Below are positions 1-58,055 of a stretch of 64,000 nucleotides of DNA, piece by piece; the stretch's first letter is position 1; each line of letters begins with the position of its first letter. The DNA comes from Thermoanaerobaculia bacterium (lineage in GTDB: Bacteria; Acidobacteriota; Thermoanaerobaculia; Gp7-AA8), in assembly GCA_035629865.1 (NCBI GenBank), contig DASPHC010000055.1, positions 70,940 through 134,939 of the forward strand, read 5' to 3'. The notes below the pieces were generated by a model. That model saw nothing but the letters and a program-made list of their open reading frames with translations. It did no database searches and had not been told where the DNA came from. The position numbers were made by a program, and so were the translations under genes.

Positions 1-2790
1 CACTGCCGGACCGACCATCGGCAGGACCGTCTTGAGAAGGGTGACCACCAAGTTCGCATACGGCGCCACCTCACGGACCCATTCGCGAGTCAGCTCCAGC
101 TCGTACGAACCGAGTCCTTCGGCGAGCAGCGGATGCTGCGCGTTCTCAGCCTCGCACCAGAGGCGGAGGGTGAATTTCTCCTGGAAGAGGCGGCGCCAAT
201 TGCCGTCTACCGGCTGGAGGTCGAAGAGGCGGGGACCATCCTTCGCCTCGCTGGCCATGGCCTTCATCAGGACCATGACGGAGTTTGCGATCTGGCTTTC
301 GATACCGGCGATACCCTGATCGATCTTTGCTTCGATGCGCGCCAGTTGCGTTCGCGGCTCCTCATCCTCGAATCCGTACAGCAACTCGACGATGTTTTGA
401 CGGCCGCGGCACGGAAGGCACCGAATGGTCTCATCGCCTTTGTCCAGGATGTCGTGCAGCGCCTCGATGTCAAAGCGACCCGGACATGGCTGTCCCCGCA
501 CTGTTCCCCGGCAGGGCACATTGAACGTGTATCGGCCTTCCATGCCGGGCCAGTTGTCGGTGATGAGCTTCTCCACCGTCTGGCGGAGAACGTTCATGAA
601 GTACTCGGGCCACGCCGCCTCGGCATAGAGGTGCAGTTCCCGGTCGCGCAGTTCAACGAGAGCTTCGCCGTGTGGTTTTCTGCGGAGGAACATTCCCTTC
701 TGCCAGTGCAGCCGATGGCCTTCGCTCATGGCGGCGTAGGGATGCGTGCGGACGATCAGCCACGGAACGAGTCCCGGCGGTGCCTCGTCGAGCACGCAGA
801 CCATTGCCAGCCGGCGACGCTCCGGCAGGGGCTCTTCCTCGGGAAGCCACGGGACCGCGGGACGCACCTGCGGGACGTGCTGCGCCACGAGACTGGCTTC
901 GCCGGATTCGAGGCGATACGAGACGTCGTACTTTTCCATGAGTTGGAGGAAGAATGGGTAGAGGTCGATAGGGTACGTAGGCTCGTTCTCGAACCTGTGG
1001 TTGAGCCACACCTCGGTGAGATGATCGTCCGGCAGAATGCCGTCCCGTTCCTGCGTCGCACGGTCCTCCAGCACGAAGCCGATGGCCTTCGTCAGCCATT
1101 CCGGTTGCAGGATCACGTCGTCCTTCAACCGCTCATCGTCGCCGTAGTAGACGATGTAGCCGAGATCGTGCATCAGAACCGCGAGCGTGCGGGTGTCGAT
1201 CGCGTCCAAGCCATGTTTTGCACAGAGCGCCGCGAACGCAGCGTACGCGACGCGCGGCTCCTGCTGACCGAGCACCAGTGCCGCGTCGCGCGCCGCCCTC
1301 CACTGTACGTTGAATGGCATGCCCATGTGCTCGAGGTCCTTCGCCACGCCGGAGATAAGACCCTTGAGCTCCGCGATGCCGAAGTTTTCGAGGCTGTCGA
1401 CCTCGATGAAGTCGACGATCATTGCGCCGTACTCGCGCTGCAATACCGGCTTGTCGATCCGGGCGATGCGTTGCCCGGTTTTGGCGTGCGTGGAAACGAT
1501 GATGACCCGCGCGTCATCGCCGACCCGTACGCGGATCAATTTCAGCCAGTCCTCCACCTGACATTGTTGCACACCCATCCGCGGCTCCCACACGAGGAGA
1601 TAAATGGAGCGCCTGCTGAAGAAGAACTGGTGAGTAGCACGATAAACCTCCTGTCCGCCGAAATCCCAGGTGTTGAATTGAATGTTTGTCTGCGACTTTT
1701 CAGGGTGTGCGAGGTGCATCGATTGAATGTCGATGCTGATACCATGGGTAGTCGGCTCGTCTTTGCGCGGCGCCTCTTTGCCGGAGAGTGCCTTGAGCAA
1801 GGTCGTCTTGCCTACATTGCCTTCGCCGACGAGGACTAGTTTGGCCTCGAAGAGTGGCTCTGCATTGTCGAGGCTGCGAAGGTAGGCTTTGACGGCGTCA
1901 GTGCCTTGGTTGTAGGCGCTCTCGAGAGCGGGGGTGAGGGGATTATAAGCGAGCGTAATTTCTTTCAACTGAGCGAGTCGCCCTATAATCCCGGGTATCG
2001 TCGCGATCTGGTTGGCGGACGCGTCGAGCTTCTCTAGGCGCGCGAGTTGCCCGATGGTCTTAGGCAGCGTAACCAGTTGATTGGTCGAGACATCTAATAC
2101 GACGAGCTGCGTCAGTGCCGAGATCCAATCCGGAATACAGGTGAGCTCGTTGCTAAAAACATCCAATGTTTCTAAACCGGCCAAGCGTGAAATCCAATGC
2201 GGCAAAGATCTCAAACCGTTGGCAAACAGAGCCAGGGAGCGCAGATGGACAAGGTCGCCCAGAACGTTAGGCAATTCCGCGCGCCGATTTATGATCGAAA
2301 GGCTGGTAAGAGATCTGAATTGTGAAATCCAAGGCGGAATTTTTGCATCGCCAGCGAGTCCGAGGTACTGCAGTTGCAAAAGATCCAGAAGCGCCTGTGG
2401 TAGAACGCTATCGTCATCGACGTCAGTACCCAATGAGCGAAGGTTTGATAAGCGACTGATCCCCTCAGGGATCTGAAGTCCAGTATTATTGTAAAGGTAT
2501 AGGGCTTCGAGCCGCTGTAAGTGCAAGATTGACTCGGGGATGGTCTTGAAGGCGTTGTTCGACAGATCCAATATTTTCAGATTCGCCAACTGCGAGATCC
2601 AGATCGGCAGTGACGCTAGACTGTTTTGTCCGAGTTCCAGCGATTCAAGATCCGTCAATTCGCCGATCGTGGTTGGTAAAGAAGTCAGTCCCAATCCGTT
2701 GAGATTGAGGCGTGTTGCTCTTTCCCTATGCGCTCTCTCGACGCGGTCATGCACGTCATCGAGAGGCTTCGCCCGCTTCCGTCTGGCCAT
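1..2790 (-). CDS. Roco-family protein: N-terminal leucine-rich repeats, Roc (Ras-of-complex) small GTPase, COR domain. 3' end lies beyond the window start (partial gene).
   Basis: Manual translation of the minus strand from the ATG at 2790 gives a continuous frame to position 1. It shows ~14 LRR units (LxxLxLxxNxLxxLP), then the P-loop KLVLVGEGNVGKTTLL, DFGGQE (G3) and STHAK (G4-like), followed by a COR-like region. The ORF track omits it because it runs off the window edge. The + strand ORF 133..1839 is its antisense shadow. Confidence 0.75.
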   Translation of the reverse strand, partial: MARRKRAKPLDDVHDRVERAHRERATRLNLNGLGLTSLPTTIGELTDLESLELGQNSLASLPIWISQLANLKILDLSNNAFKTIPESILHLQRLEALYLYNNTGLQIPEGISRLSNLRSLGTDVDDDSVLPQALLDLLQLQYLGLAGDAKIPPWISQFRSLTSLSIINRRAELPNVLGDLVHLRSLALFANGLRSLPHWISRLAGLETLDVFSNELTCIPDWISALTQLVVLDVSTNQLVTLPKTIGQLARLEKLDASANQIATIPGIIGRLAQLKEITLAYNPLTPALESAYNQGTDAVKAYLRSLDNAEPLFEAKLVLVGEGNVGKTTLLKALSGKEAPRKDEPTTHGISIDIQSMHLAHPEKSQTNIQFNTWDFGGQEVYRATHQFFFSRRSIYLLVWEPRMGVQQCQVEDWLKLIRVRVGDDARVIIVSTHAKTGQRIARIDKPVLQREYGAMIVDFIEVDSLENFGIAELKGLISGVAKDLEHMGMPFNVQWRAARDAALVLGQQEPRVAYAAFAALCAKHGLDAIDTRTLAVLMHDLGYIVYYGDDERLKDDVILQPEWLTKAIGFVLEDRATQERDGILPDDHLTEVWLNHRFENEPTYPIDLYPFFLQLMEKYDVSYRLESGEASLVAQHVPQVRPAVPWLPEEEPLPERRRLAMVCVLDEAPPGLVPWLIVRTHPYAAMSEGHRLHWQKGMFLRRKPHGEALVELRDRELHLYAEAAWPEYFMNVLRQTVEKLITDNWPGMEGRYTFNVPCRGTVRGQPCPGRFDIEALHDILDKGDETIRCLPCRGRQNIVELLYGFEDEEPRTQLARIEAKIDQGIAGIESQIANSVMVLMKAMASEAKDGPRLFDLQPVDGNWRRLFQEKFTLRLWCEAENAQHPLLAEGLGSYELELTREWVREVAPYANLVVTLLKTVLPMVGPAV

Positions 2791-2797
2791 GCTCCCC

Positions 2798-5245
2798 TCA
2801 CTTACACAACAACTGATAAACCCCCACCACATCGTCCTGCACGTCATCTAGATCGCTCTTGATCTTCCCCACGATCTCCTGGAACGCAGGATCACCCTGC
2901 AGCCCTTGCAACCATGGATGCTTGATCAGCGCATACCACGAATGGTTCCCGCCCTCGGCCGCACGCCGCAGCCAGGCGATGGCTTCCGCGTTGTCGCCGA
3001 GCTTTGCGTGGACGAGGGCGACGCGGAGGGCGGCCCAGTGGTTGCGGTTGGCGTCGCTCTCGAAGGTGCGGATGCGGGCGAGGGCGCCGGTGCGGTCGCC
3101 GCGGGCGGCGGCGATCTGGGCTTTGAGGCTTTTGCCTAAGTAGTGGCTGGGGACGAGGCGGAGGGCGGCGTCGGCTTCTTTGTCGGCGGCGGGGAGGTTG
3201 CCGTGGATGAGGAAGGCCATGCCGCGGATGTCGTGGCCGGCGAGCTGAGTCTCGCGGGAGGAGAGCGCGACCTGCGCGGTCTTGAGCGCGCCGTCGGGGT
3301 CGACGGCGTTGAGGTTCCAGTAGCCGCGCGTCAGGGCTTCGTTCGACATCGGGTCGACGCGGACCAGGATGTCGCCGACGCATTGCGCTTTCTGCAGGTC
3401 GCCGGTCGAGACGAAGTACGTGACGACGGAGTGCAGGGCCTGGGTGTCGTTCGATTCGAGGCGGAGGGCGGCGAGAACTTCGCGCACCGACTCGCGGAAG
3501 CGTTGCGGGTCGCGGATGAAGACGCGGCCGAGTGCGAGGTGGGCCTGGGGGAGGTTGGGATCGAGGCGGACTGCCTGCCGCGCGTACCACTCCGCTCTCG
3601 CGAAGTCTTCCTGCGAGGCGAGGCTGCGGGCCTGGCCGAGGGAGAGGGTGGCGGCGAGATCGGCGTAGGCGCCGGCGAAGGTGGGGTCGAGGGAGATGGC
3701 GCGCTTGAGGGCGGCGATCTGCTCGGCGAAGCGCTTGGGCTCGAAGCTGCCGTTGAGGGAACGGGCGCGCAGGTACTCCTCGTACGCTTTCGGGCTCGAC
3801 GAGCGGATGGTGGAGCGCGCGAGCTGCGGCTGCTGGATGCCGATGCGCTGGTTCAGGCCGGAGACGGTGCGCGCGGAGACGTCGTCGATGAGCTTCAAGA
3901 GGTCGGTGCGGCGGCCGTCGATGGTGTCGGACCAGACCGAGAAGCCGGTGCGGGCGTCGGTGAGCTGCAGGGTGACGCGCACCAGGTCGCCGGCGGCGAG
4001 GAAGTGGCCTTCGAGGATGCCGTCGACTTTCAGCTTCTCGCTGGCCGCCTTCGCGTCCGGCTTCGTGCCGGCGAATTCGAGGACGGCGGAGGTGGGGCGG
4101 ACCTGCAGGGATGGGATCTGCTGCAGTTCGGTCACGAGGGCATCCGCGAGGCCGACGGAGAGGAACTCGTCGCTGGTGCTGTTGGCGATGTTGCGTAGCG
4201 GCAGGACGGCCATCGACCGGATCGGCGGCGGCGTGGTGCCGGTGGCTTCGGCGTTGGTGTCGGTGCGCTGGGCGATGAAGACGGCGATGAGGACGACCAG
4301 CGCGGCGGCGGCGGTGACGGCGACCTGGACCCAGCGCGGACGGCGGACGGTGCGGCCGAGGCTCGTGCGCGACGTGGCCTGGGTCATCATCCGCACGGTC
4401 GGCGTGTCGATGTCGTCGAGGTCGGTCAGCAGCTCGCGCGCGGTCTGGTAGCGGTCGCCGGGGTCTTTCTGGAGCAGCTTGGCAATGATGCGCGTCGCCG
4501 CCGGCGGGAAGGAGGGGTCGAGCGGCACGAACGGCTCCGGCTCGCCGTCGCGGATCTTCTCCAGCACCATCAGCGGCGCTTCGGCGTTGAAGGGGAGGTG
4601 GCCGGCGGCCATGTGGTAGAGGACGACGCCGACGGAGAAGAGGTCGCTGCGGATGTCGGCGTTCTGGCCGCGGGCCTGTTCGGGGGAGATGAAGTGCAGG
4701 GTCCCGAAGAAGTGGCCAGTGGAGGACTCGAACGTCTTCTCGATGCCGGGGTCGGTGAGCGCGCGGGGGATCGACTTGGCGAGGCCGAAGTCGAGGATCT
4801 TCGCCAGGCCGTTCGGCTCGACGATGATGTTGGCGCTCTTGATGTCGCGGTGGAGGATCCCTTTGTCATGGGCGGCGGCGACGCCGGCCGCGAGCTGGCG
4901 GGCGATGGCGAGGAACTCGCCGGACTCGAGCGGACGGCGGCGAACGCGCTGCGAGAGCGTCTCCCCCTCGCAGTACTCCATGACGATGAACGGGACGCCG
5001 TCGGCGGACTCGTCTACTTCGTAGATGGTGGCGACGTTCTGGTGCCGCACCGCCGCGGCTGACTTCGCCTCCCGCAGGAAACGGGCCCTCCGGTCGTCGT
5101 AAGCCAGCTCGCTGGAGTTCAGGACCTTGATGGCGACCAGCCGCGCAAGCCGTTGATCGCGCGCGAGATACACCGTCCCCATCCCGCCCTTGCCGAGGAC
5201 GCGGACGATCTCGAAGCCGTCGAACGAAGGAAAGTTATCCGACAT
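2798..5245 (-). CDS. Ser/Thr protein kinase with a single transmembrane segment and C-terminal TPR repeats
   Basis: N-terminal Hanks kinase motifs GKGGMGTVYLARD, AIKVL, HRDIKSANIIV, DFGLAK, SPEQ. A hydrophobic stretch follows (VQVAVTAAAALVVLIAVFIA), then TPR-like repeats. The stop lies 8 bp upstream of the Roco start, so the two genes form an apparent operon. Confidence 0.85.
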   Translation of the reverse strand: MSDNFPSFDGFEIVRVLGKGGMGTVYLARDQRLARLVAIKVLNSSELAYDDRRARFLREAKSAAAVRHQNVATIYEVDESADGVPFIVMEYCEGETLSQRVRRRPLESGEFLAIARQLAAGVAAAHDKGILHRDIKSANIIVEPNGLAKILDFGLAKSIPRALTDPGIEKTFESSTGHFFGTLHFISPEQARGQNADIRSDLFSVGVVLYHMAAGHLPFNAEAPLMVLEKIRDGEPEPFVPLDPSFPPAATRIIAKLLQKDPGDRYQTARELLTDLDDIDTPTVRMMTQATSRTSLGRTVRRPRWVQVAVTAAAALVVLIAVFIAQRTDTNAEATGTTPPPIRSMAVLPLRNIANSTSDEFLSVGLADALVTELQQIPSLQVRPTSAVLEFAGTKPDAKAASEKLKVDGILEGHFLAAGDLVRVTLQLTDARTGFSVWSDTIDGRRTDLLKLIDDVSARTVSGLNQRIGIQQPQLARSTIRSSSPKAYEEYLRARSLNGSFEPKRFAEQIAALKRAISLDPTFAGAYADLAATLSLGQARSLASQEDFARAEWYARQAVRLDPNLPQAHLALGRVFIRDPQRFRESVREVLAALRLESNDTQALHSVVTYFVSTGDLQKAQCVGDILVRVDPMSNEALTRGYWNLNAVDPDGALKTAQVALSSRETQLAGHDIRGMAFLIHGNLPAADKEADAALRLVPSHYLGKSLKAQIAAARGDRTGALARIRTFESDANRNHWAALRVALVHAKLGDNAEAIAWLRRAAEGGNHSWYALIKHPWLQGLQGDPAFQEIVGKIKSDLDDVQDDVVGVYQLLCK

Positions 5246-5319
5246 CAGGAGCGGTCGGGGGCATTCTACCCCGGGGAAAGGCAGAGGTCAGAAGGCAGAA
5301 GGCAGAAGGGAAGGCATGC

Positions 5320-5460
5320 CGCGGAGCTGGGGTCAGAGCTTCGTTTCGCGCGGAACAGAAGAACGAAGGTGTGACCCCAAGCGACGGGGCCGGCGGTTCC
5401 TCGGAGGGGTCAGAGCTTCGTTTTTCTCTCAGGAACAGCAGAACGAAGGTCTGACCCCTT
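5320..5460. repeat. REP-like palindromic elements (GGGGTCAGAGCTTCG / CGAAGGTCTGACCCC family), 2-3 copies in a divergent intergenic region
   Basis: Direct reading: ggggtcagagcttcgtttcgcg...cgaaggtgtgacccc and ggggtcagagcttcgtttttctc...cgaaggtctgacccc. Confidence 0.8.
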
Positions 5461-5559
5461 GACAGCCCCACTTCTGCCTTCTGCCCTCTGCCTTTCCCAC
5501 GTGGTCAATTCGCTGACCCTTTAGACACCTTTGGTGGGTTATATTCTCACCCCGCCATC

Positions 5560-8500
5560 ATGACAACGACCATCGAAGGTGTCGCTCCGGACGTCGCTCT
5601 TCCTCCTCGTTATCAGATTCGCCAAGTGCTGAAGCAGACTGCGGAGACTTCCGTGTTCCGGGTCTTCGACGTGCCGGATCGGCGCGATGAGGCGATCAAG
5701 ATCCTCTGTCACGAGGTCACGGATCCGCAACAGCTTCTCCGGTTCAAGACAGAGTTCGCGACGCTCGCCTCGCTCGAGCATGCGAGCGTGATCAAGGTCT
5801 ATGACTTCGGCGTCCTGCAGGACCGGTATCCCTACTTCACGATGGAGTTTTTCGCCGGGAAGCGGATCACGGAGTTTTTTGACGGACAGAATTGGGACGC
5901 GCTGTTCGACGTGATCCTGCAGATCGCCTCGGGGCTGCACCACATCCACCACCTCGGCATCGTGCACCTCGACCTGAAGCCGTCGAACATCCTGGTCTCC
6001 GAAGACGGCAAGGCGAAGATCATGGATTTCGGCCTGGCCATCGAGAGCCGGCGCGTATTCGACCGGAAGATCCGCGGGACGCTGCAGTACATGGCCCCCG
6101 AGGTACTGCGGCAGGACCGCGTCGACTCGCGCGCCGACCTCTACGCCCTCGGCATGACGCTCTACGAGACCGTCACCGGCGCCCTTCCGGGCTACGGCCG
6201 TCCGTCGATCGAAGTGATCCGCATGCACCTCGACGAGGAGATCCGCAGGCCTTCGTCGATCAACCCCCGCGTGCCAGAAGCGCTCGAGCAGATCATCATG
6301 AAGATGCTCGAGAAGGACCCGCGGCATCGCTTTCCCTCGGCCGCGGCGCTCCTGCAGGCGGTCGCCGAGGCGGCGGGGAAGAAGGCGCCGGCGGCGGAGC
6401 TGCTGGTCGGCCGCGGAGAGCTGTTCGCCGCGCCGCTGATCGGGCGGAAGAACGAAGTCGATCAGTTGATGCATCTGATCGTCGAGGCGCGCGACGGCCG
6501 CGGCGACGGGGTCATCCTCGCGGGCGGCGAGGGGATGGGGAAGAGCCGCATCGTGCGCGACGTGACGCTGCGCGCGCAGCTCGACGGCGGCCGCGTCTTC
6601 ACCGGCCGTTGCCCGGTGAACCGCAAGACCATCTACGCGCCGTTCTTCGACATCTTCCAGCAGATGGTGTCGGCGGTGAACCCGGAGGCCGACGTCTCCG
6701 AGGAGATCCGGCGCATCCTCCGTCCGGTGGTCGGCTCGGCGGGACCGGACACCAGCCCGCCGCGGCACGGCCAGAAGTTCCGTCTCTACAACCGGATCGT
6801 GCAGTCGATGCAGGACCTCTACGGATTCCTGAGCGTCGGCAGCGAGACCGGCGGCTCGCCGCTGATCCTGGTGATCGAGGACCTGCAGTGGGCCGATCCG
6901 TCGACCGCGGAGCTCTTCTCGTTCCTGGTGGGCGAGGCGAAGCAGAACAAGCTGCTGGTGATCGGCACGCTGACGCTCGACTCGCACGGCGAGGCGAGCA
7001 TCGAGTCGCCGTCGCCGAGCCTGGCGTTCTGGGAGCTGCGAGCCCGCGAGGCGTCGTTTCCGATCGTGCGGGTGGAGACGCTCACCGAGCCGCTCGTCCG
7101 CGAGCACGTGCAGTCGCTTCTCGGCGACACGAAAGTCTCCGACGAGCTCGTACGCTGGATGCTGTGGGAGTCGGCCGGCACGCCGCTGAACATCCGCCGC
7201 ATCATCGATTACCTCATCACTCACGACTATCTCCAGTGGACGCCGGGCGGCTGGACGGCCGACATGGACCGCATCCGGGTGCTGCGCATCCCCGGCGGCT
7301 TCGCGTCGATTCTGATGGAGAAGGCGGAGGCGCTGACGCCGGAGCAGCGGACGCTGCTCGACATCGCCTCGGTGGTCGGGGAGTCGATGGATCTCGAGCT
7401 GTTGACGCGGCTCTCGGACGCAACGCCGGAGGAGACGTTCGCGTCGCTGCGCGAGCTGACGCGCCTCGGTCTTCTCGACGAGTCGAACGACGGCAACATC
7501 ATCACCTTCCCGCAGATGCATCTGCGTGAGACGGTCTACAACGCCATGCCGGAGCGGCGGCGGACGGAGCTCCACCTGCGCGTCGGCGAGGCGATGGAGC
7601 CGGCGGCGAACGACGGCTCGACGCAGCTGGTCGGCCAGGTCGCGTATCACTTCTCCCGTGCGAACGACATCGAGCGCGGCACGCGCTGCTCGATCGAGGC
7701 GGGCGATCTCGCCTCGCGCACCCTGGCGCACGAGGAAGCGACGGAGTTCTACCGCGTCGCCCTGGAGATGATGGACCTGGGCGGCGTCGAGGAGGCGCGC
7801 AAGGCGGAGGTTCGCGAGAAGCTGGCCGATGCGTATTACCGCCGCGACGACTATCGCAGCGCCATCCATGCGTACCAGTTCCTCCTGAAGTCGATCCAGA
7901 GCCGCCATCCGGACGACGACGCGAACGTGGACGTCGCCCGGGTGATGAAGAAGATCGGCAAGGTGCTGGCGCGGCGCGGCGAGCAGGAAACGGCGATGAC
8001 GTACTACCAGGGCGCTCTGGCGATCTACGAGCGCCTCGGCCAGACCGTCGACGTCGCCGAGATGCTCAACCGCATCGCCTGGATGTACCGGATGCGCGAC
8101 GACTTCACCACCGCCCGCGAAACGGCGGAGCGCGCGCGGGTGATGCTGGAGACGATGGAGCCGACGGTCGTCTACGGCTACGTGAAGAACATCCTCGGCC
8201 TGATCGAGTTCGCCGGCGGCAACTGGCAGCGCTCGCGGGAACTGCTGACCGAATCGCTCGCGATCGGTGAGAAGCTCGGGAGCGAACAGCTCTGCAAGGT
8301 CGCCTCGATGAACCTCGGCAACACGGTCTGGAAGCTCGGCGAGTGGGAGACCGCGCTGCAGTACTTCCGCAAGAACCTGGAGCGCTCCGAGGGCGAAGGG
8401 GACCTGTGGGACCTCGTCACCGCCTACAACAACGTCGGCGTCGTCGAGTACGGCCGCGGAAACTTCCACGCCGCGGCGGAGCTGTTCGAGAAGAGCGTCC

Positions 8501-10866
8501 GCATCGACGAGAAGATCGGCGCGTTCGAGCATGAGGCGCTGGCGCGGGAGAACCTGGCCGACGCGCTGGAGATGCTCGGCAAGTGGAACGAGGCTCTGGA
8601 GCAGTATCGCCGCTGCCTCAGCCTGGAAGGGTTCGACGAGACGCGCGCGTCGCGGCTGTCGGTGTACGTCCCGCTGGCGCGCCTGACGAAGAAGCGCGGC
8701 GACATCAACAAGTCGATCGAGTACGCGCACAAGGCCATGGCCGCCGGCGAGCGCGCCCGCGACGTAGACCTGATTGCCGAGGCGGCGTACGTGCTGGCGT
8801 CGATCGAAGACGAGCGGGGGAACGCGGAGGAGGCGGAGAAGTACCTTCTGCGTGCAATGCAGATCTACGAGGCCAACCACACCCTGCACGGGCTGGCCCG
8901 CTCGCACACCGCGGCGGCCTGCATGGTGCTGACGAAGGGCGACATCGACGGGGCGGTCAAGCACGCGCAGATCGCGGAACAGTACGCGCGGCAGCTCGGC
9001 GACCGCTTCTCGCTGGCGAAGAACGACTGGGCGTGGGCGAAGATCGAGAGCTCGCGCGGCGAGCGCGAGGCGGCGACGGCGAAGTTCGACTCGGTGCGGG
9101 CGGCGTTCGAGGAGCTCGACACGCCGTACGAGCTGGGGCGGCTGATGTTCGACATCGGCCTGCTGCGCGACGAGCCGGAAGAGGCGACCCAGACCATCCG
9201 CAGCGCCATCCGGATCTTCGAGAAGCTCGACGCCACGCATGACCTGGAGCGGGCGCGCGGCGCGCTGTTCCGCATCCGCCCGGCCGGCAAGGCGCCGGAG
9301 CAGGGCGTGGTCGGCCTCTACGAGGTCGTCAAGATCATCAACTCGACGCTGAATCTCGAGGAAGTGCTGAGCCGCGTCCTCGACGTCTGCATCCGCAGGC
9401 TGCGCGCCGAGCGAGGCATGATCCTGCTGCTCGACCCGCTGACCAACGCGCTCCGCACGCGCGTGGTCCGCAACATCAAAGACGGCGCGGAAGGGGAGTC
9501 GAAGCGCTCGCCGCAGTCGATCGTCAAGGAAGTGATCCAGACCGGGCAGTCGGTGATGTCCGCCGACGCGCGGGCCGATCATCGCTTCGTGGAGTCGGAG
9601 TCGGTGATCGCGGAGAACATCATCTCCATCCTCTGCGCGCCGCTCATCATCAAGGAACGGATCTCGGGCGCCATCTACATCGACCACCGCCAGGCGCGGC
9701 ACCTCTTCTCGCAGAAGGACCTCAGCTTCCTGGAGGCGTTCGCCGACCAGGCGGCCATCGCGATCGAGAACGCGCGGCTCTACGAGGAGCTCGAGGAAGC
9801 GCGCACGCGGCTGTCGCTCGAGAACGAGACCCTGCGCCGCGAGGTGCTGGTCGAGAAGCATCTCGACTCGGTGATCGGACAGTCCGAGGTGGTGGCCAAG
9901 ATCCAGTTCGCGGTCCGCAAGGCTTCCGCCGGACACTCGACGGTGCTGGTGCGCGGCGAGTCCGGCACGGGCAAGGGCCTCATCGCCCGGATCATCCACA
10001 ACATCGGACCGCGCCGGAACGGGCCGTTCATCAAGTTCAACTGTGCCGCGCTGCCGGAGACGCTGGCGGAGTCGGAGCTGTTCGGCCACGAAAAAGGCGC
10101 GTTCACCGGCGCGGACCGCCGCAAGCTGGGACGCTTCGAGCTGGCCAACCATGGCACGATCTTCCTCGACGAGATCGGGAAGATGTCGCTGGCCATGCAG
10201 GCCAAGCTGCTGCGCGTGGTGGAGGACAAGGAGTTCGAGCGCGTCGGCGGAACGCAGACCATCAAGACCGACGTGAAGATCGTCACCGCCACGAACCTCG
10301 AGCTGGAGAAGGCGATCGAGGACAACACCTTCCGCGAGGACCTCTTCTACCGGCTGAACATCATCCCGATCATGCTCCCGCCGCTGCGCGACCGGAAGGA
10401 CGACATCCCGCTGCTGGCCGAGCATTTCATCCGCAAGATCTGCAAGGACCTCGGCGTCGACAACAAACGCCTCGAGCCGGGCGTGCTCGATCTCTTCATG
10501 CGCTACGACTGGCCGGGCAACGTCCGCGAGCTGGAGTCGACGCTGCACCGCGCCATCGTCATGTCCAATGGCGACATGATGACCAGGACCGACTTCTACA
10601 CCCTCTACTCGGCCCAGGCCCCGGCGCTGGTTGTCGCCGACGCCGCGTCGACGATGCCGAGCTCCATCACCGGACCGCTGGCCGGGAAGATGGAGATCAC
10701 CAGCGAGGTCTACGACGAGGTGATGTCCGCGGTCGACAAGCAGCTCATCCTCCGCGCCCTGGAAAGCTGCGGCGGCCGGATCCGCGAAGCCGCCCGCCGC
10801 CTCGGCCTGGCCAGGAACACGCTGAAGTCGAAGATCCAGAAGTACAACATCGCCGTGAGAGAGTAG
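5560..10866 (+). CDS. Giant signalling protein (1768 aa): Ser/Thr kinase, STAND/AAA P-loop NTPase, TPR array, GAF domain, sigma54-interaction AAA+ domain and Fis-type HTH. It is a kinase-fused bacterial enhancer-binding protein.
   Basis: Kinase motifs HLDLKPSNILV, DFGLA, APE. Walker A GGEGMGKSR (~aa 320). Many TPR-like repeats (aa ~700-1250). GAF-like segment (ILLLDPLTNALRTR...AIYIDHR). Sigma54 activator motifs GESGTGKGLIARIIH, ELFGHEKGAFTGA (GAFTGA), GTIFLDEIG. C-terminal HTH RIREAARRLGLARNTLKSKIQKYNI. The long minus-strand ORF 5539..11340 is antisense artefact. Confidence 0.85.
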   Translation: MTTTIEGVAPDVALPPRYQIRQVLKQTAETSVFRVFDVPDRRDEAIKILCHEVTDPQQLLRFKTEFATLASLEHASVIKVYDFGVLQDRYPYFTMEFFAGKRITEFFDGQNWDALFDVILQIASGLHHIHHLGIVHLDLKPSNILVSEDGKAKIMDFGLAIESRRVFDRKIRGTLQYMAPEVLRQDRVDSRADLYALGMTLYETVTGALPGYGRPSIEVIRMHLDEEIRRPSSINPRVPEALEQIIMKMLEKDPRHRFPSAAALLQAVAEAAGKKAPAAELLVGRGELFAAPLIGRKNEVDQLMHLIVEARDGRGDGVILAGGEGMGKSRIVRDVTLRAQLDGGRVFTGRCPVNRKTIYAPFFDIFQQMVSAVNPEADVSEEIRRILRPVVGSAGPDTSPPRHGQKFRLYNRIVQSMQDLYGFLSVGSETGGSPLILVIEDLQWADPSTAELFSFLVGEAKQNKLLVIGTLTLDSHGEASIESPSPSLAFWELRAREASFPIVRVETLTEPLVREHVQSLLGDTKVSDELVRWMLWESAGTPLNIRRIIDYLITHDYLQWTPGGWTADMDRIRVLRIPGGFASILMEKAEALTPEQRTLLDIASVVGESMDLELLTRLSDATPEETFASLRELTRLGLLDESNDGNIITFPQMHLRETVYNAMPERRRTELHLRVGEAMEPAANDGSTQLVGQVAYHFSRANDIERGTRCSIEAGDLASRTLAHEEATEFYRVALEMMDLGGVEEARKAEVREKLADAYYRRDDYRSAIHAYQFLLKSIQSRHPDDDANVDVARVMKKIGKVLARRGEQETAMTYYQGALAIYERLGQTVDVAEMLNRIAWMYRMRDDFTTARETAERARVMLETMEPTVVYGYVKNILGLIEFAGGNWQRSRELLTESLAIGEKLGSEQLCKVASMNLGNTVWKLGEWETALQYFRKNLERSEGEGDLWDLVTAYNNVGVVEYGRGNFHAAAELFEKSVRIDEKIGAFEHEALARENLADALEMLGKWNEALEQYRRCLSLEGFDETRASRLSVYVPLARLTKKRGDINKSIEYAHKAMAAGERARDVDLIAEAAYVLASIEDERGNAEEAEKYLLRAMQIYEANHTLHGLARSHTAAACMVLTKGDIDGAVKHAQIAEQYARQLGDRFSLAKNDWAWAKIESSRGEREAATAKFDSVRAAFEELDTPYELGRLMFDIGLLRDEPEEATQTIRSAIRIFEKLDATHDLERARGALFRIRPAGKAPEQGVVGLYEVVKIINSTLNLEEVLSRVLDVCIRRLRAERGMILLLDPLTNALRTRVVRNIKDGAEGESKRSPQSIVKEVIQTGQSVMSADARADHRFVESESVIAENIISILCAPLIIKERISGAIYIDHRQARHLFSQKDLSFLEAFADQAAIAIENARLYEELEEARTRLSLENETLRREVLVEKHLDSVIGQSEVVAKIQFAVRKASAGHSTVLVRGESGTGKGLIARIIHNIGPRRNGPFIKFNCAALPETLAESELFGHEKGAFTGADRRKLGRFELANHGTIFLDEIGKMSLAMQAKLLRVVEDKEFERVGGTQTIKTDVKIVTATNLELEKAIEDNTFREDLFYRLNIIPIMLPPLRDRKDDIPLLAEHFIRKICKDLGVDNKRLEPGVLDLFMRYDWPGNVRELESTLHRAIVMSNGDMMTRTDFYTLYSAQAPALVVADAASTMPSSITGPLAGKMEITSEVYDEVMSAVDKQLILRALESCGGRIREAARRLGLARNTLKSKIQKYNIAVRE

Positions 10867-10935
10867 AGACTGGTTGCTGGTTGTCTGGGCGTTTCGGTTC
10901 TTGCGGGACGTATGCGCGACGTCATCGGGCAAAAT

Positions 10936-11198
10936 CCTTACGGCGAGACGCCGCCGCCGGCGGGACGCCGCCGGACCAGCCGACGAGGACGTCGGCGCTC
11001 CAGGCGCGGACCGCGGTTCTCGCGAATCGGGCCGTCCGCAGTTCTCGCGAATCGGGCCGTCCGCGGTTCTCGCGAATCGAAACGTCGGCATTCCAGCGCA
11101 CGACCGATGCTCGTGAACGGAGGTCCGCGCGTGGAGCGCCGACGTCCTCGTCGGCTGGCCCGGCGGCGTCCCGCCGGCGCACGGCGTCTCGCCGTAAG
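10936..11198. repeat. MITE-like element with ~75-bp near-perfect terminal inverted repeats (CCTTACGGCGAGACGCC...) and three internal tandem 24-bp repeats (GGTTCTCGCGAATCGGGCCGTCCGC)
   Basis: Left arm 10936-11010 is the reverse complement of right arm 11121-11198. Internal direct repeats sit at 11012-11085. A shorter copy occurs at 44645-44830. Confidence 0.8.
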
Positions 11199-11285
11199 GG
11201 TGGTGCCCAATCACCTGGTAGCGCGGTATCCTTGTCCTGGTGAACGCCGGTTCCGCCCGGCGGGTGTGCGAAAAGGGGAGGGCCA

Positions 11286-11482
11286 TGGCTGTCGTCGAAA
11301 CCGCCGTACGGGACCTCGAGAATATCCAGATGAGTCTCATCCGGCTTCACGCTCTTCTCGCGCAGCACACCATGTCGGTCTCCGACCGCCATCGCGTCGA
11401 CAGCTACTTCGACGCGTTCGCGTCCGATCTCGTCGGACTCGAAGAGTTTTTGCGCAGCATGCCCACCACTTCGCGAACGTAA
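11286..11482 (+). CDS. Small hypothetical protein (65 aa)
   Basis: ORF with a good RBS (aggggagggccATG); no recognisable motifs. Start chosen at the internal Met preceded by the RBS. Confidence 0.3.
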
Positions 11483-17200: not shown

Positions 17201-18926
17201 GGCGGCATTGCCCGGCTATGATCCGCGGCTCATGCCTCATTACCTCCTGAGCTGGGGAGCTCCGAGCCACCGGCTGTTCGACATCACCATCCGTTTCACG
17301 GCTCCGGCCGACACACCGCGGCTGCTGCTGCCGGCGTGGCGGCCGGGGCGGTATCTGATCCAGAACTATGCGGCGAATGTGCGGGAGTGGTCCGCGGGCG
17401 ACGCGGCGGTCTGGAAGGACGGGCTGACCTCCTGGCGCGTCGATGCGCGGGCCGGGGAGGAGGTGACGTTCCGGTATCGCTATTACGCCGGGGTGCTGGA
17501 CGCGGGCTCGAGTTTTCTGGACGAGGGGGAGGCGTATTTCAACGGGTCGAATCTCTTCATGATGGTCGAGGGGCTGCGCGGGGAGGAGCATCTGCTGACG
17601 ATTGCCGCGCCGATGGACTGGTTGATCGAGACGCAGTTGCCGCGGGAGGACGGGCAGACGTTCCGCGCGCGCGATTTCGACCATCTCATCGACTCGCCCA
17701 CGATCGCTTCGGCGGCTCTGACGCGGCACTCGTTCCGGGAAGGGGACGCGCGGGTGCACCTCGTGTTTCAGGACGCCGGCGGGATCGACGCCGAGGGGTT
17801 CGTGGAGCCGGTGCGGGCGATCGTGAGGACGCAGGGGGAGTTGTTCGGCGGGCTGCCGTTCAGTGACTACCGTTTTCTCTATCACGTGCGCGACCGGTGG
17901 CATGGGGTGGAGCACGAGGATTCCTGCTCGGTCACGCTTCGCCGCGACGAGTTGCTGGGGGCGCGGCCGGGGAGCGACGGGTTCGACCGGTTTTTCTCGA
18001 TCACTGCGCACGAGTTTTTCCATGTCTGGATGGTGAAGCGGATCGTTCCGGCGGCGTTCACGCCGTACGACTACTGGCAGGCCACGCCGACGCGCCTGCT
18101 GTGGGTGATGGAAGGAGTCACGTCGTACTACGGCGAGAGGACGCTCGTGATGGGCGGGCTCTGGACGGTCGAGCGCTATCTGAAGCATCTCGCGACGGAG
18201 ATCCGGACGTTCGAGGGGCTGCCGGCGCGCGAGCATCTGTCGCTGGCGCAGGCGAGCTTCGACGGGTGGCTGAGCGATCCGGCGCAGATGCACGATTACG
18301 GTAATGCCTGGTTCTCGTTCTACAACAAGGGCGAGATCGTGGCGACGCTGCTCGACCTGACCATCCGCCGCGCGACCGAGGGGGCGCGATCGCTCGACGA
18401 CGTCATGCGCCTCCTGTGGGAGGAGTACGGCCAGAGCCGCCGCGGACTCGAGGAGGACGGCTTCGAGCGCGCGGTGTCGCGCGTCGCGGACGTGGGCGAC
18501 TTCTTCGTCCGCTATGTCGAGGGGACGGAGCCGCTGCCGTACGAGGAATTGTTCGCGGCGGCCGGTGTTGCATTCGCGTCCACGCCGCGCGATCCGGAAG
18601 CTTCAGCGCTCGGCGCGAGACTGAAGGCGGATGGCGGCAGGCTGGTGGTCGAAAGCGCCATCCGTGGCGGCGCAGCGATGGACGCCGGGTTGCTGCCGGG
18701 CGACGAGCTGCTGGCGCTCGGCGAGACGCGGACCGGCACCGAGGCGGCGCTGACCGCGGCGTTGCGCGCTTTGAGAATCGGCGAGTCGGTGGGAATGCTG
18801 ATCGCGCGGGCGGGTGTGATCCGGCGGCTGTCGCTGGAAGCCCGGCCCGATCCGCGGCCGGTGGTGTCGCTGCAGTTGACCGGACCGAATGAACTGCGGC
18901 GGGGATGGCTCAGGAGCGAGGAATGA
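17193..18926 (+). CDS. M61 family glycyl aminopeptidase-like zinc metallopeptidase with C-terminal PDZ domain
   Basis: HExxH motif HEFFHVWMVKRI; C-terminal PDZ-like GARLKADGGRLVVESAIRGGAAMDAGLLPGDELLALG. The start is uncertain: 17121, 17193 and 17232 are all possible, and the first lies inside the palindromic repeat. Confidence 0.7.
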   Translation: MRPAALPGYDPRLMPHYLLSWGAPSHRLFDITIRFTAPADTPRLLLPAWRPGRYLIQNYAANVREWSAGDAAVWKDGLTSWRVDARAGEEVTFRYRYYAGVLDAGSSFLDEGEAYFNGSNLFMMVEGLRGEEHLLTIAAPMDWLIETQLPREDGQTFRARDFDHLIDSPTIASAALTRHSFREGDARVHLVFQDAGGIDAEGFVEPVRAIVRTQGELFGGLPFSDYRFLYHVRDRWHGVEHEDSCSVTLRRDELLGARPGSDGFDRFFSITAHEFFHVWMVKRIVPAAFTPYDYWQATPTRLLWVMEGVTSYYGERTLVMGGLWTVERYLKHLATEIRTFEGLPAREHLSLAQASFDGWLSDPAQMHDYGNAWFSFYNKGEIVATLLDLTIRRATEGARSLDDVMRLLWEEYGQSRRGLEEDGFERAVSRVADVGDFFVRYVEGTEPLPYEELFAAAGVAFASTPRDPEASALGARLKADGGRLVVESAIRGGAAMDAGLLPGDELLALGETRTGTEAALTAALRALRIGESVGMLIARAGVIRRLSLEARPDPRPVVSLQLTGPNELRRGWLRSEE

Positions 18927-19390
18927 CAGAGACGCGAGCGGTCGAGATGACCGAGGACCGGATCCCGCTGGAAGGGATCGAAGAAACGATCGAAGAGCTG
19001 GTGGACCTCTTCGGCGGCAACATCACCGCCGAGCGCGATCGCGCCCGCGACTTCATCCTCCCGCTACGCCGCGGCATCGCCACCGGCGGTGGAGTGGAGT
19101 GCACCGTCTCCTGGGCACCCGCCGCCGAAGGCGACGGCACGGTGACCATGACCTGCAACCGCGACGTCGACGCCCCCAAAACCCAGCGCATCCTCCTCCT
19201 CGCCGCCGGTGTCATCGGCGCAGTGATGTTCATGCTCTGGCCCTTCTTCCCCCACGAAAAGGAGTACGGAACCCTGGCCTGGCTCGGCGGCGCAGTCGCC
19301 ATTGCCGTCTACCTCATGACCCTCCGAAAAACCAGCGGCGGCATCGCCCACGACTTCCTCCAGCGCCTGGCGACGCGACAACGCGCGTAA
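18923..19390 (+). CDS. Hypothetical membrane protein (155 aa), translationally coupled (ATGA overlap) to the M61 peptidase gene
   Basis: ORF with two predicted TM helices (ILLLAAGVIGAVMFMLW, LAWLGGAVAIAVYLM); no recognisable catalytic motifs. Confidence 0.4.
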   Translation: MTETRAVEMTEDRIPLEGIEETIEELVDLFGGNITAERDRARDFILPLRRGIATGGGVECTVSWAPAAEGDGTVTMTCNRDVDAPKTQRILLLAAGVIGAVMFMLWPFFPHEKEYGTLAWLGGAVAIAVYLMTLRKTSGGIAHDFLQRLATRQRA

Positions 19391-19700
19391 ACCCTTGGGG
19401 TCAAAGCTTCGCTCTTTCGCATTGCTGAGAAAATAGCGCGTAACGCTTGGGGTCAGAGCTTCGCTCTTTTGCATTCCCAGCTTATTTAGGGTCAGAGCTT
19501 TGTTCTTTCGCATTCCCGAGAAAATGAAAGCTCTGACCCCATTGGGGCCGGACGAGCCTGGGGCGGCAGAGCTTCGTTTTTCGCATTTCTGACGAAAAGC
19601 AACGCTCTGGCCTCCTTGTGTAAGGCCGGAACGGTTGTGGAGAAACGGACGGGCACTCGCTGCGGTGAGCAAAGCGACGCCGATTTACGCCGCCTCGTAC
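19385..19700. repeat. Array of at least four REP-like palindromes (GGGGTCAGAGCTT(C/T)G family) in alternating orientation (REPIN-like doublets), downstream of the RAYT pseudogene
   Basis: ggggtcaaagcttcgctctttcgc..., ggggtcagagcttcgctcttttgc..., gggtcagagctttgttctttcgcattcccgagaaaatgaaagctctgacccc, and others. Confidence 0.85.
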
Positions 19701-20879: not shown

Positions 20880-21000
20880 GAAGGGGTCAAAGCTTCGCTC
20901 TTTCGTGAGCCGTAAGAAAGCCAAAGCTCTGACCCCATACATACGGGGGTCAGAGCTTCGTTTTTTCGTTGGCTGCCGAAGATCAAAGCTCTGACCCCAG
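20880..21000. repeat. REP-like palindrome doublet (same family) upstream of the RAYT pseudogene
   Basis: ggggtcaaagcttcgctctttcgtgagccgtaagaaagccaaagctctgacccc and ggggtcagagcttcgttttttcgttggctgccgaagatcaaagctctgacccc. Confidence 0.85.
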
Positions 21001-23129: not shown

Positions 23130-25142
23130 CTATTTTTGGTCCGTGTCGCAGCTCGGGACGAAGTAAAGCCGGATGGATTTCCCTACCCGACGTCGCGACG
23201 AGTGATTTTTCAGCCAGGCGAGTGAGCCGTGGTGTTTCTCGATCCAGGACATTTCGCTGATCGCGATCCAGCCAGTGACGCAGCGTGCGGGGATCTTCTC
23301 GGCGTGAGGCAGGCGCTGTTTCCATCCGGTCGAGCCCCAGTAGTCGACGTAGAGCGGCGAGAGGTTTTCGGTTTCGGCAACGGCAGCGAGGCGGAGGAGA
23401 TCCTGCCCCCAGTCGAGATTGCTGTCGGCGGCGACGCGCTCGGGATGTCTGCCCGCGACTTCGTTGAACCAGGCGAGGTAATCGGGGTGGGCGAGCGTCG
23501 TTCCGGCGAAAAACCAGACCAGCAGAGCCGCGACCGTGACTCTCGCCGCCTTGCCTCGATGCCACAGCCAGACCACCGCGACCGCGGCGGCGAGGGCCAG
23601 GAAGGGATAGAGGGGGAGGATGTGCCGGACGCCGATGTTGATCCTGCTGGTCATCGCGACGGCGAGCATGGCCAGAGGGATGAGGGCAAGGGCGAGGTTC
23701 TCGGGAGTACTCCCGGTCTGTAGTTTCTTCGCGGTGCGAGTTGCTGGTTGCTGGTTGCCTGTGATTCCGGGTCTTGGCCGGGCCCCGAGCAGCAGGCCGC
23801 CCACCATCGCCAGCGCCAGGAACGCCAGCGGTGTCTTGTAGAAGAGGATGACCGGAAAGTAATACCACCAGCCGGTATTGCGGGACTCGCCGAAGAGGTA
23901 GGCGGGATGGCCGACGGCGGAGTGGCGGCGGACGTACTCGGCGCCGGCAATGTACGACGGAGCGAGGATCGGGATGTGGGTGGCGATCCACTGGAGGGAG
24001 GCCCGGAACGGCTCGGCGACTCGCTGGCTGAGCGTCGGTTTCGGGACCGGCGGCGCTCCGGCGAGCGTGTTTCCCTTGCGACCGGCGAGAGGCGATGGGT
24101 AACCGGCCGCTTTGGCCCAATCGACGAAGTCGATGCCGGCGATCCCGTGCTTTCGCTCTACCTCGCCGGCGAAGTCGTAGTAGCGGTCGAGCAGGTCGGG
24201 GCGTACCCACTCGTAGCCCGGCTCGCGCGCGTACCTGGCGGCGATGTGCTGGGGAGCTTCGCCGTCGAAGGTATCGAGGCGGACGCTGTTCAGCAAGCCG
24301 GTCTCGCCGCGGTAGGCGAGCCAGATCAAGAGGATAGCCACGATTCCGGCGGCCAGAAAACGAACGACGAAGGGGTCACACCTTCGTTCTTTGATGTCGG
24401 GGTCAGAGCTTCGCTCTTTCGCCCCGATGGGGTCAGAGCTTTGTTTTTCCGCCGGCGAGGAAAGAACGAAGGTGTGACCCCTTCGGAGCAGGAAGAGCGA
24501 AGCTCTGACCCCAAGGAGGACGAGGAAGCCGGCGCCGAAGAAGATCAGGAAGGAGAATTTGCCGAGGAGGCCGGCGCCGAGGGCGAGGCCGAAGAGGAGG
24601 GTGTGCTTCCAGTTGGGCTGCTCCAGCCAAAGGGCGAAGGTGAACAGTGCGGCGGCGGTGCCGGCGGCGGCCGCCATGTCGGTGGTGGTCAGGCCGGCGT
24701 GGGCAAGGACCGGCGGGAGTGCGCCGAAGAGGGCGGCGGCGATGACGCCCGCGAGATCGCCGGCCAGCCTGCGGGTCCAGAGGAAGACGATCGCCAGCGC
24801 CAGGAGGAAGAAGGGGAGGTTGCCGGCGCGGGCGGCGGTGAGGTTGCGGGGATACTCTTCGTTGCGCTCGAGAAGCTGGTTGCCTCGCGCGGCGCGGCTG
24901 AGGCTCCGGTCGATCTCCGCGCCATCGAGCCAGGCGTCGATGGCGAAAAATATCCGGGCCAGCGGCGGATGTTCGCGATCGAGCGTGTACCGCCCCTCAT
25001 CCAGCCATTGGAAGCCGGCGGCAACGTGAATCGGCTCGTCGATGGTCTGGCTGAAGAGCGTCCAGGTCGACGCAATCCGGATTACTGGCACCAGGACCAG
25101 GACCGCGAGCACGATCGCAAGCCGCCGCCTCGTCATCTGCAT
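23130..25142 (-). CDS. Polytopic membrane glycosyltransferase, GT39/PMT_2 (ArnT-like) family, carrying an in-frame insertion of REP elements in a loop
   Basis: About 12 TM helices. TM1 followed by a loop with the DE motif (TIDEPIHVAAGFQWL...EHPPLARIFF). Start chosen at MQMTRRRLAIVLAVLV. Positions 24355-24525 (REP family) translate in-frame as ...SSPAEKQSSDPIGAKERSSDPDIKERRCDP... Confidence 0.5.
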   Translation of the reverse strand: MQMTRRRLAIVLAVLVLVPVIRIASTWTLFSQTIDEPIHVAAGFQWLDEGRYTLDREHPPLARIFFAIDAWLDGAEIDRSLSRAARGNQLLERNEEYPRNLTAARAGNLPFFLLALAIVFLWTRRLAGDLAGVIAAALFGALPPVLAHAGLTTTDMAAAAGTAAALFTFALWLEQPNWKHTLLFGLALGAGLLGKFSFLIFFGAGFLVLLGVRASLFLLRRGHTFVLSSPAEKQSSDPIGAKERSSDPDIKERRCDPFVVRFLAAGIVAILLIWLAYRGETGLLNSVRLDTFDGEAPQHIAARYAREPGYEWVRPDLLDRYYDFAGEVERKHGIAGIDFVDWAKAAGYPSPLAGRKGNTLAGAPPVPKPTLSQRVAEPFRASLQWIATHIPILAPSYIAGAEYVRRHSAVGHPAYLFGESRNTGWWYYFPVILFYKTPLAFLALAMVGGLLLGARPRPGITGNQQPATRTAKKLQTGSTPENLALALIPLAMLAVAMTSRINIGVRHILPLYPFLALAAAVAVVWLWHRGKAARVTVAALLVWFFAGTTLAHPDYLAWFNEVAGRHPERVAADSNLDWGQDLLRLAAVAETENLSPLYVDYWGSTGWKQRLPHAEKIPARCVTGWIAISEMSWIEKHHGSLAWLKNHSSRRRVGKSIRLYFVPSCDTDQK
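24355..24525. repeat. REP-like palindromes embedded in-frame inside the GT39-like gene
   Basis: ggggtcacaccttcgttctttg...ggggtcagagcttcgctctttcgcc...ggggtcagagctttgtttttcc...cgaaggtgtgacccc...agcgaagctctgacccc. Confidence 0.8.
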
Positions 25143-45039: not shown

Positions 45040-46878
<1,839 letters not shown>

Positions 46879-58004: not shown

Positions 58005-58055
58005 GGGCTGTGGTTGGCGTGCGAACGCCGGTCAGTCGGCGTATGGTATCGCGTC

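Follow-up and report, generated by a model that had tools for sequence, protein, structure and literature searches.

How a bacterium might place Ser/Thr kinase signalling and σ54-dependent transcription on one polypeptide is the question raised by a single long gene in a 64,000-nucleotide stretch of DNA from a Thermoanaerobaculia bacterium, an uncultured soil acidobacterium (assembly GCA_035629865.1, contig DASPHC010000055.1, positions 70,940 to 134,939 of the forward strand). We refer to this whole stretch as the window. A first-pass annotation had read the gene as a fusion of a Ser/Thr kinase, a STAND NTPase, a tetratricopeptide repeat (TPR) array, a GAF domain, a σ54-interacting AAA+ domain and a Fis-type helix-turn-helix (HTH), and had allowed for a hidden frameshift or stop in the reading frame. 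The analysis described below demonstrates that the fusion is genuine and that its last ~520 residues form a complete enhancer-binding protein (EBP) of the NifA type, with its GAFTGA and ATPase motifs intact. As to function, we favour the reading, with a probability of about 0.55, that the gene encodes a cytoplasmic multi-input σ54-dependent activator, in which assembly of the AAA+ ring would be gated by the STAND and GAF modules and by Ser/Thr phosphorylation from a partner kinase.

The fusion gene and its domains

The gene is an uninterrupted open reading frame (ORF), whose GC content at the three codon positions (0.66/0.41/0.93) matches that of real genes in the window of ~67% GC. An antisense ORF (5539..11340), though longer, was rejected as a shadow ORF with an Arg-, Ala- and Asp-rich translation. 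The product is predicted to be soluble and cytoplasmic, with no transmembrane segment. When 5.8 billion proteins were searched for relatives, at least 120 protein clusters of 1736-1789 residues were found to cover 98-100% of the activator at 71-87% identity. An identical protein is deposited at NCBI (our entry P0001, 'sigma 54-interacting transcriptional regulator [Thermoanaerobaculia bacterium]', 1746 residues) with its start placed 22 codons downstream; the ATG at 5560 is supported over the NCBI start by orthologues that align from residue 1-3. Scanning of one genome per GTDB species revealed 63 loci with colinear orthologues at 60-90% identity, all in metagenome-assembled genomes (MAGs) of Thermoanaerobaculia/Acidobacteriota. 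The activator-bearing genomes include complete long-read chromosomes of 5.9 and 6.6 Mb, and complete Thermoanaerobaculia chromosomes carrying the gene include OY970380.1 and OY970284.1.

The gene is conserved evenly across its domain junctions. An assembly or frameshift artefact that fuses two or more genes has only a prior in its favour, since very long multi-domain ORFs in MAGs are sometimes chimeric, and we found no direct support for it. The same protein of 1736-1789 residues recurs in independent assemblies from many studies, complete long-read chromosomes included, and its conservation is uniform over the junctions, so that this explanation is refuted and its probability is close to nil. 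The hidden frameshift or two-gene origin about which the first-pass annotation had cautioned is thus ruled out by the full-length clusters and the colinear loci, and each of the six modules that it named is recognised by a significant hidden Markov model (HMM) match within one colinear, conserved ORF.

Residues 1255-1767 matched the solved NifA chain 9qq6_C from end to end (E 2e-88). The σ54-interaction domain, on whose significance the earlier reading also hung, was detected by Sigma54_activat (PF00158) at residues 1438-1604 with an E value of 1.5e-67 and 226.9 bits against a cutoff of 20.2, covering positions 1-167 of the 168 in the model, and was followed by AAA_lid_14 at 1610-1687 (E 4e-23). 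Active-site motifs were examined in an alignment of 120 orthologues. The loop at residues 1513-1518 reads GAFTGA in 94 of the 120 and GSFTGA in 26, and the Walker A motif (GESGTGKG), the DE of Walker B (IFLDEIG), the arginine-finger segment FREDLFYRLN and the sensor II segment WPGNVRELE are invariant or nearly so. The HTH region is also well conserved. Conservation of the GAFTGA loop together with the ATPase motifs argues that the C-terminal module is a genuine σ54 activator.

This module is not thereby a NifA. Residues 1248-1767 span the whole NCBIfam NifA model TIGR01817 with 453 bits, below the equivalog cutoff of 528.85, and no nitrogenase (nif) genes were present among the scanned genes of the window. 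Most orthologues of the activator, in hundreds of database entries, bear the JGI name 'Nif-specific regulatory protein'. Given the score below the cutoff and the lack of nif genes nearby, this name looks like a systematic mis-annotation, a label unsupported by the evidence presented here.

In models made with AlphaFold2 (AF2), the N-terminal 750 residues begin with a kinase fold resembling PknB, after which comes a STAND module of the MalT/Apaf-1 type whose P-loop is intact. Pfam AAA_16 was matched at residues 292-468 (E 4e-31, 109 bits against a cutoff of 32.6), and NCBIfam aligned residues 290-752 to the STAND region of the TOMM kinase/cyclase fusion TIGR03903. The Walker A motif GxxGxGKS at 322-329 (G322, K328, S329) is intact in the orthologues, the Walker B motif at 435-446 is LILVIEDLQWAD (hhhhEDLQWAD in the orthologues), and the GxP motif of the helical domain (G540/P542) is invariant or nearly so. 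Because a Foldseek search with the model of residues 1-760 was dominated by kinase matches, the nucleotide-binding oligomerization domain (NOD) was modelled separately as residues 286-760, with a predicted local distance difference test (pLDDT) score of 87.2 and a predicted TM-score (pTM) of 0.86. Its top structural match was the STAND-TPR protein PH0952 (6mfv_A, E 5e-11); MalT (8bob_C) was matched at E 1e-10 with TMq 0.56, and Apaf-1, CED-4 and plant NLRs were among the further matches. A sequence search of the PDB with the NOD gave no match. The predicted NOD fold is followed by the TPR array, where STAND proteins have a repeat sensor. Pfam placed six TPR_12 matches (E 2e-38) over residues ~750-1175 and TPR_MalT at 926-1175, and the sequence matches of the array in the PDB were consensus TPR proteins, LGN/Pins and kinesin light chain.

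The domain in front of the STAND module is identified as a Hanks-type Ser/Thr kinase both by HMM (Pkinase at residues 30-264, E 5e-42) and by fold, the AF2 model of residues 1-760 showing a regular PknB-like kinase (pLDDT of the AF2 models, 85-87). Residues K47, E65, D138, K140, N143, the DFG motif (D156) and the APE motif (E181) are invariant in the 120 orthologues. The GxGxxG signature is absent. The loop is LKQTAETSVFRV in the window and LK[EQ]T[PA][AE]T[CAS]V[YF]RV as the consensus across orthologues, only 2 of the 120 having a glycine in it, at position 29. Distant members of the family retain the canonical LGxGGxGxVY, which indicates that the glycine-free loop is a derived trait of the Thermoanaerobaculia clade and its nearest relatives. 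The HRD arginine is also missing; the catalytic loop reads HLD, as in most of the wider family.

A divergent receptor kinase and the conserved spacer

The first-pass annotation described the gene as isolated, which proved wrong on both sides: a divergent receptor kinase adjoins it in ~50 orthologous loci, and a gene for a 163-residue membrane protein is ancestrally downstream. The partner kinase has canonical motifs of the RD type (LGKGGMGTVY, HRDIKSAN, DFG), and a single transmembrane helix is predicted at ~303-326, with the TPRs in the extracytoplasmic part. Its orthologue (62-85% identity) is divergent from and adjacent to the activator in every locus that has upstream sequence, except the most distant one, L057; these ~50 loci span 60-87% activator identity. 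Both paralogous activator copies of one MAG (L007 and L023) are accompanied by the partner. Distant family members of a TA06-like bacterium, of a Myxococcales MAG and of one further genome have no adjacent receptor kinase, and the pairing is therefore specific to the Thermoanaerobaculia lineage.

The spacer between the two genes is usually 80-125 bp in orthologous loci. It is 314 bp in the window because a 225-bp repeat element has been inserted. Alignment of the orthologous spacers revealed two conserved blocks in front of the activator (Table 1). In block 1, an imperfect palindrome, TGG and TGACC are invariant in all 38 parsable loci. Block 2 lies 14-17 nt after block 1; the distance from its end to the estimated start codon is 0-31 nt in 37 of the 38 parsed loci and 99 nt in the remaining one. 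The two-block motif occurs nowhere else in the window, and elsewhere in ~700 kb of loci only at scattered chance positions. Judged from its position, block 2 could possibly be the −10 region of a short-leader or leaderless transcript. The palindrome has the layout of a dimer site for a Fis-type HTH, and may be an operator through which the activator regulates its own gene. The motif was also considered as a σ54 promoter in both orientations, and this was rejected; it reads GG-N10-GA. On the side of the partner kinase, a σ70-type promoter-like site was found, whose TAGAAT hexamer is kept in the orthologous spacers as a G.ATTCTA block of the alignment.

Table 1. Features of the activator locus and its surroundings (positions counted from the first nucleotide of the window)
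Feature	Position	Strand	Basis or remark
Divergent partner: 815-residue transmembrane receptor Ser/Thr kinase, extracytoplasmic TPR domain	2798..5245	-	Pkinase 11-272, E 3e-48, and TPRs
σ70-type promoter-like site of partner kinase, CTGACC-17-TAGAAT	5263..5291	-	Promoter scan, 1 site against 0.0 expected
Spacer-inserted repeat: 28-nt terminal inverted repeats around two REP-like hairpins	5274..5498	.	Inverted-repeat search
Spacer motif block 1: TGGTCAAnTTTCTGACCC, imperfect palindrome GGTCA-N6-TGACC	5502..5519	+	Orthologous spacer alignment
Spacer motif block 2: GGGTTATATTCTCACCC, 7 nt before ATG	5536..5552	+	Orthologous spacer alignment
Kinase-STAND-TPR-GAF-σ54 activator gene	5560..10866	+	Uninterrupted ORF, ATG start, 1768 residues, stop codon included
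Hanks-type Ser/Thr kinase domain, residues 15-280	5602..6399	+	Non-RD (HLD), glycine-free Gly-rich loop
STAND NTPase module (NOD: P-loop, helical and winged-helix domains), residues 292-752	6433..7815	+	AAA_16, motifs, AF2 model
TPR array, residues ~754-1245	7819..9294	+	TPR_12, TPR_MalT
GAF domain, residues 1264-1403	9349..9768	+	GAF and GAF_2, E 1e-16
σ54-interaction AAA+ domain with lid, residues 1438-1687	9871..10620	+	Sigma54_activat, AAA_lid_14
Fis-type HTH, residues 1724-1762	10729..10845	+	HTH_8, E 1.2e-10
Palindromic repeat ('MITE') after activator stop	10921..11214	.	294 bp, long inverted arms
Homologue of the 163-residue protein with two transmembrane helices (68% identity)	18905..19390	+	Displaced 8 kb from activator in the window
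REP/BIME-like clusters	5329-5458, 19397-19578, 20883-20998, 24372-24512, 25946-26126		Motif matches

Family, neighbourhood and flanking repeats

We examined how widely the architecture is distributed, using residues 569-1768 as a phmmer query on 1.84 billion representatives of clusters at 50% identity. Of the 150 best matches, 91 proteins of 1487-2180 residues carry an N-terminal kinase and a C-terminal GAF-AAA+ part, and a profile of 20 distant members detected 5026 proteins at E <= 1e-50. Named members with Pkinase, AAA_16, TPR, GAF, Sigma54_activat and HTH_8 come from candidate division TA06, Eisenbacteria, Planctomycetota, Myxococcota/Deltaproteobacteria, Calditrichota and Polarisedimenticolaceae. 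JGI already uses the product name 'transcriptional regulator with GAF, ATPase, and Fis domain/serine/threonine protein kinase/TPR', and calls some relatives 'PknK'. The proposal that the gene defines a 'distinct class of mega-bEBP' (bacterial EBP) therefore does not hold as a discovery, the surveyed architecture being in the databases in thousands of copies from several phyla, with an identical protein deposited. The gene in the window is a regular, vertically inherited member of a large catalogued family and not a unique invention. A full-text literature search returned no functional or comparative description of a kinase-σ54 activator fusion; the paper on ambruticin AskABC was considered as a precedent and set aside, as it concerns hybrid histidine kinases. 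The most useful new findings are that the activator gene is paired with a receptor kinase in a lineage-specific and strongly conserved manner, that the spacer carries a conserved motif and that the glycines of the kinase loop have been lost; the fusion itself is already catalogued.

The kinase-STAND-TPR-GAF chassis also ends in other outputs. Kinase-STAND-TPR-GAF-(PAS)-histidine kinase proteins (P0335, P0371, P0380, P0342, P0385) and the corresponding GGDEF proteins (P0377, P0379, P0383) aligned with the distant family profile over ~80% of the length, and differ from the activator in having a histidine kinase or a diguanylate cyclase as output instead of a σ54 activator. In a TA06-like locus (L066, 1-5915), the family member P0133 stands directly after two NtrC-type response-regulator σ54 activators and a GAF histidine kinase, an arrangement that may be a local σ54 regulatory cluster.

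The protein shares with the NifA-type EBPs (NifA 9qq6, NorR, FhlA) the order of GAF, GAFTGA-bearing σ54 AAA+ domain and Fis-type HTH, and control of the AAA+ domain by the GAF domain would be expected by the same logic. It differs in scoring below the NifA equivalog cutoff, in having no nif genes nearby, and in its additional 1250 N-terminal residues of kinase, STAND and TPR; we know of no characterised NifA-type activator with such an extension. A Hanks kinase followed by a MalT-like STAND NTPase and TPRs is the layout of PknK, and the activator shares this N-terminal order with PknK and other kinase-STAND-TPR proteins, such as the TOMM kinase/cyclase fusion. With MalT of Escherichia coli and other STAND transcription factors it shares a STAND NOD and helical-repeat sensor in control of a DNA-binding output. 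MalT, which is activated by inducer- and ATP-dependent multimerization, uses a LuxR-type HTH to act at σ70 promoters and is not known to carry a kinase or a second ATPase, whereas the output of the activator is itself an AAA+ motor that needs oligomerization. PknK of M. tuberculosis is not known to have GAF, σ54 AAA+ or HTH domains and regulates transcription by phosphorylating separate regulators, in contrast to the activator, which has the transcription module on the same chain and a kinase loop without glycines. PknK acts on transcription regulators, which it phosphorylates (PMC9045387). Ser/Thr phosphorylation has been linked to σ54 transcription through the FHA-domain EBPs of Myxococcus xanthus (Jelsbak, Givskov and Kaiser 2005, as cited in PMC12288465). 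In those proteins, the phospho-threonine reader (FHA) is fused to the EBP and the kinase is separate, whereas here the fused part is itself a kinase domain, and the neighbouring gene encodes a second kinase, of the receptor type. That the fusion would short-cut the connection between Ser/Thr kinase and σ54, as the first-pass annotation suggested, is plausible, and nothing found here contradicts it.

The region around the activator is syntenic and of housekeeping character, near rpoD and dnaG. In 20 loci, L057 among them, the gene for the 163-residue membrane protein lies on the activator strand, 7-107 nt past the activator stop; in 13 it lies 0.4-3.6 kb further off, and in 17 loci a gene for a 130-residue protein comes after it. 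In most orthologous loci the two genes stand immediately behind the activator, with which they are probably co-transcribed. In the window, the homologue is separated from the activator by the palindromic element together with an MMPL transporter gene and genes for a Na+/H+ exchanger, MgtE and an M61 peptidase. The 163-residue protein has two C-terminal transmembrane helices and belongs to no Pfam family (example in L001, 15358-16238).

Repeat elements flank the activator on both sides. The statement that a miniature inverted-repeat transposable element (MITE) follows the gene stood in part: the element is short, non-coding and bounded by terminal inverted repeats, with dispersed copies, and could equally be a palindrome of the repetitive extragenic palindromic (REP) type. 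Its arms of 76 nt (91% complementary) and 33 nt enclose three 25-bp tandem repeats. A second copy (44651-44828) lies just downstream of the rpoD stop (rpoD at 45040-46878, minus strand), and fragments were found after the orthologous activator gene in L008 and L035, and also in L031 and L048. The downstream palindrome is a dispersed repeat, and a second repeat element lies upstream of the gene, in the spacer. The latter contains a 17-nt motif, GGGGTCAGAGCTTCGTT, resembling those of REP and bacterial interspersed mosaic elements (BIME), which forms hairpins of ~50 nt with its complement. There are 25 matches to this motif in the window, with up to 3 mismatches, against 0.23 expected, and all but one fall into five clusters; the exception, at 3327 within the gene of the partner kinase, probably arose by chance. 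Two of the clusters lie inside ORFs called as PMT_2 glycosyltransferases, which suggests that these calls are too long.

The region is rich in Ser/Thr kinases. A second receptor-type kinase of 931 residues (CHASE4-HAMP-Pkinase, 39368-42163, plus strand) is encoded near rpoD, and its HAMP-Pkinase homologue is also found near the activator in L001. Starting at 2790 on the minus strand, 8 nt past the stop of the partner kinase, a gene for a Roco protein of at least 930 residues (leucine-rich repeats, Roc GTPase, COR-A and COR-B; LRRK2-like) runs off the left edge of the window, and the two genes may form an operon. The GC content of the Roco segment is lower (0.54-0.62), and a 46% identical homologue was present in the same position only in the closest species (L029). 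The listed ORF 133..1839 (plus strand, 568 residues) was rejected as a shadow of the Roco gene. Directly after a MurJ-like gene (57501-59750), Rfam detected domain V/VI of a group II intron (59805-59880, minus strand) with 53.6 bits against a gathering score of 40.

Proposed mechanism and alternatives

STAND switches such as MalT multimerize upon binding of inducer and ATP, the GAF domains of NifA and NorR keep the AAA+ domain off, and AAA+ activators need a hexamer to function. From these behaviours we infer that the TPR/STAND part and the GAF domain may gate the assembly of the AAA+ ring jointly. The STAND module would act as a MalT-like ADP/ATP oligomerization switch, driven by a ligand of the TPR sensor, and the GAF domain would restrain the AAA+ domain until its own ligand arrives, as in NifA and NorR. 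The two together would decide whether the AAA+ hexamer assembles, and the hexamer would remodel σ54 RNA polymerase at promoters elsewhere in the genome. A further input by phosphorylation or kinase pairing is suggested by the conservation of the receptor kinase, by the spacer that the two genes share and by a fused kinase that is intact apart from its glycine-free loop. The receptor kinase would relay an extracytoplasmic signal, either by phosphorylating the activator or by pairing with its atypical kinase domain, so that the gene pair would work like a two-component system made of Ser/Thr kinases, and the spacer palindrome would be a candidate site at which the activator HTH binds to control its own gene. 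More ambitiously, the pair could be a dedicated transmembrane cassette of soil Thermoanaerobaculia, a Ser/Thr counterpart of NtrB/NtrC, in which an extracytoplasmic signal, handed on by phosphorylation between the kinases or by their heterodimerization to the receiver kinase without a glycine loop, would release the STAND switch and nucleate the σ54 AAA+ hexamer; we offer this extended version tentatively and hold it to be unlikely.

Several observations weigh against the proposed σ54 activator and its gating. Allowing up to 2 mismatches, the search for TGGCAC-N5-TTGCW in the 64-kb window gave 4 weak matches against 17.6 expected by chance, and scoring of GG-N10-GC over the window and over 704 kb of orthologous loci yielded neither a conserved or well-placed site nor a target gene. 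The gene for σ54 itself, rpoN, was not seen among the larger predicted genes of the window that were scanned. The steps of oligomerization, phosphotransfer and GAF ligand binding are modelled on characterised relatives, the spacer palindrome, variable in its left half, may bind another factor, and the glycine-free loop makes the kinase activity of the fused domain uncertain. In addition, a strict link between the loop and the partner kinase was tried and rejected: L057, at 60% identity, has the loop but no adjacent partner, which makes the correlation imperfect and suggestive at most.

An alternative view is that the fused kinase of this clade is a catalytically silent pseudokinase, serving only as a docking or allosteric module for the receptor kinase or the STAND switch, and that only the two ATPases are catalytic. 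The loss of all loop glycines in the Thermoanaerobaculia orthologues and nearest relatives, in contrast to the LGxGGxGxVY of distant members, points in this direction, as do the non-RD catalytic loop and the canonical kinase that the clade has acquired as a conserved neighbour. Pseudokinases, however, usually miss at least one of the catalytic residues, and here every one of those listed above, from K47 to the APE motif, is invariant; the replacement loop is itself conserved, and the predicted fold is that of a regular PknB-like kinase. We consider a silent kinase possible, but doubtful.

Less probable is that the kinase is the main output, as in PknK of M. tuberculosis, with STAND clustering activating trans-phosphorylation and the C-terminal part autoregulating or repressing at σ70 rather than σ54 promoters. 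Such a protein would explain why no σ54 promoter was found nearby and why a conserved palindrome overlies the promoter region of the gene itself, which is σ70-type or leaderless in appearance, and some relatives do bear the JGI name PknK, after a kinase that phosphorylates transcription regulators (PMC9045387). It would not explain the retention of the GAFTGA or GSFTGA loop and the AAA+ catalytic motifs in the orthologues, a σ54-contact signature that is unexpected in a pure σ70 repressor. The target promoters of σ54 activators, moreover, often lie far from the activator gene. Far less probable still is a STAND system for anti-phage defence or other conflicts, of the Avs or NLR kind, whose TPR sensor would detect a phage protein. 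Defence systems commonly include STAND NTPases that have TPR sensors, the gene has repeat elements on both sides, and PADLOC matched its kinase domain to two kinase models, PD-T4-6 and mad6. These PADLOC matches are at the level of domains only (kinase and RtcR-type AAA+), no Avs or STAND defence model was matched, and vertical conservation at the species level in 63 loci, within a syntenic housekeeping region near rpoD and dnaG, speaks against it. Its output is a transcription activator and not a nuclease, a protease or another cell-killing effector.

Activators of σ54 are the textbook case of ATP-driven transcription initiation, and their known inputs are receiver, GAF, PAS, V4R, FHA and CARF modules. 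A Ser/Thr kinase and STAND input would add a different control logic, with a kinase and two nucleotide switches together on a single polypeptide, in a family that is abundant in uncultured soil Acidobacteriota, Myxococcota and Planctomycetota. If the extended version of the proposal is true, the cassette would amount to an assembly of the signalosome type, akin to apoptosomes and NLRs, that directly drives bacterial transcription initiation. The Thermoanaerobaculia pair, consisting of a receptor kinase, an activator and a conserved spacer motif, offers a compact, testable system.

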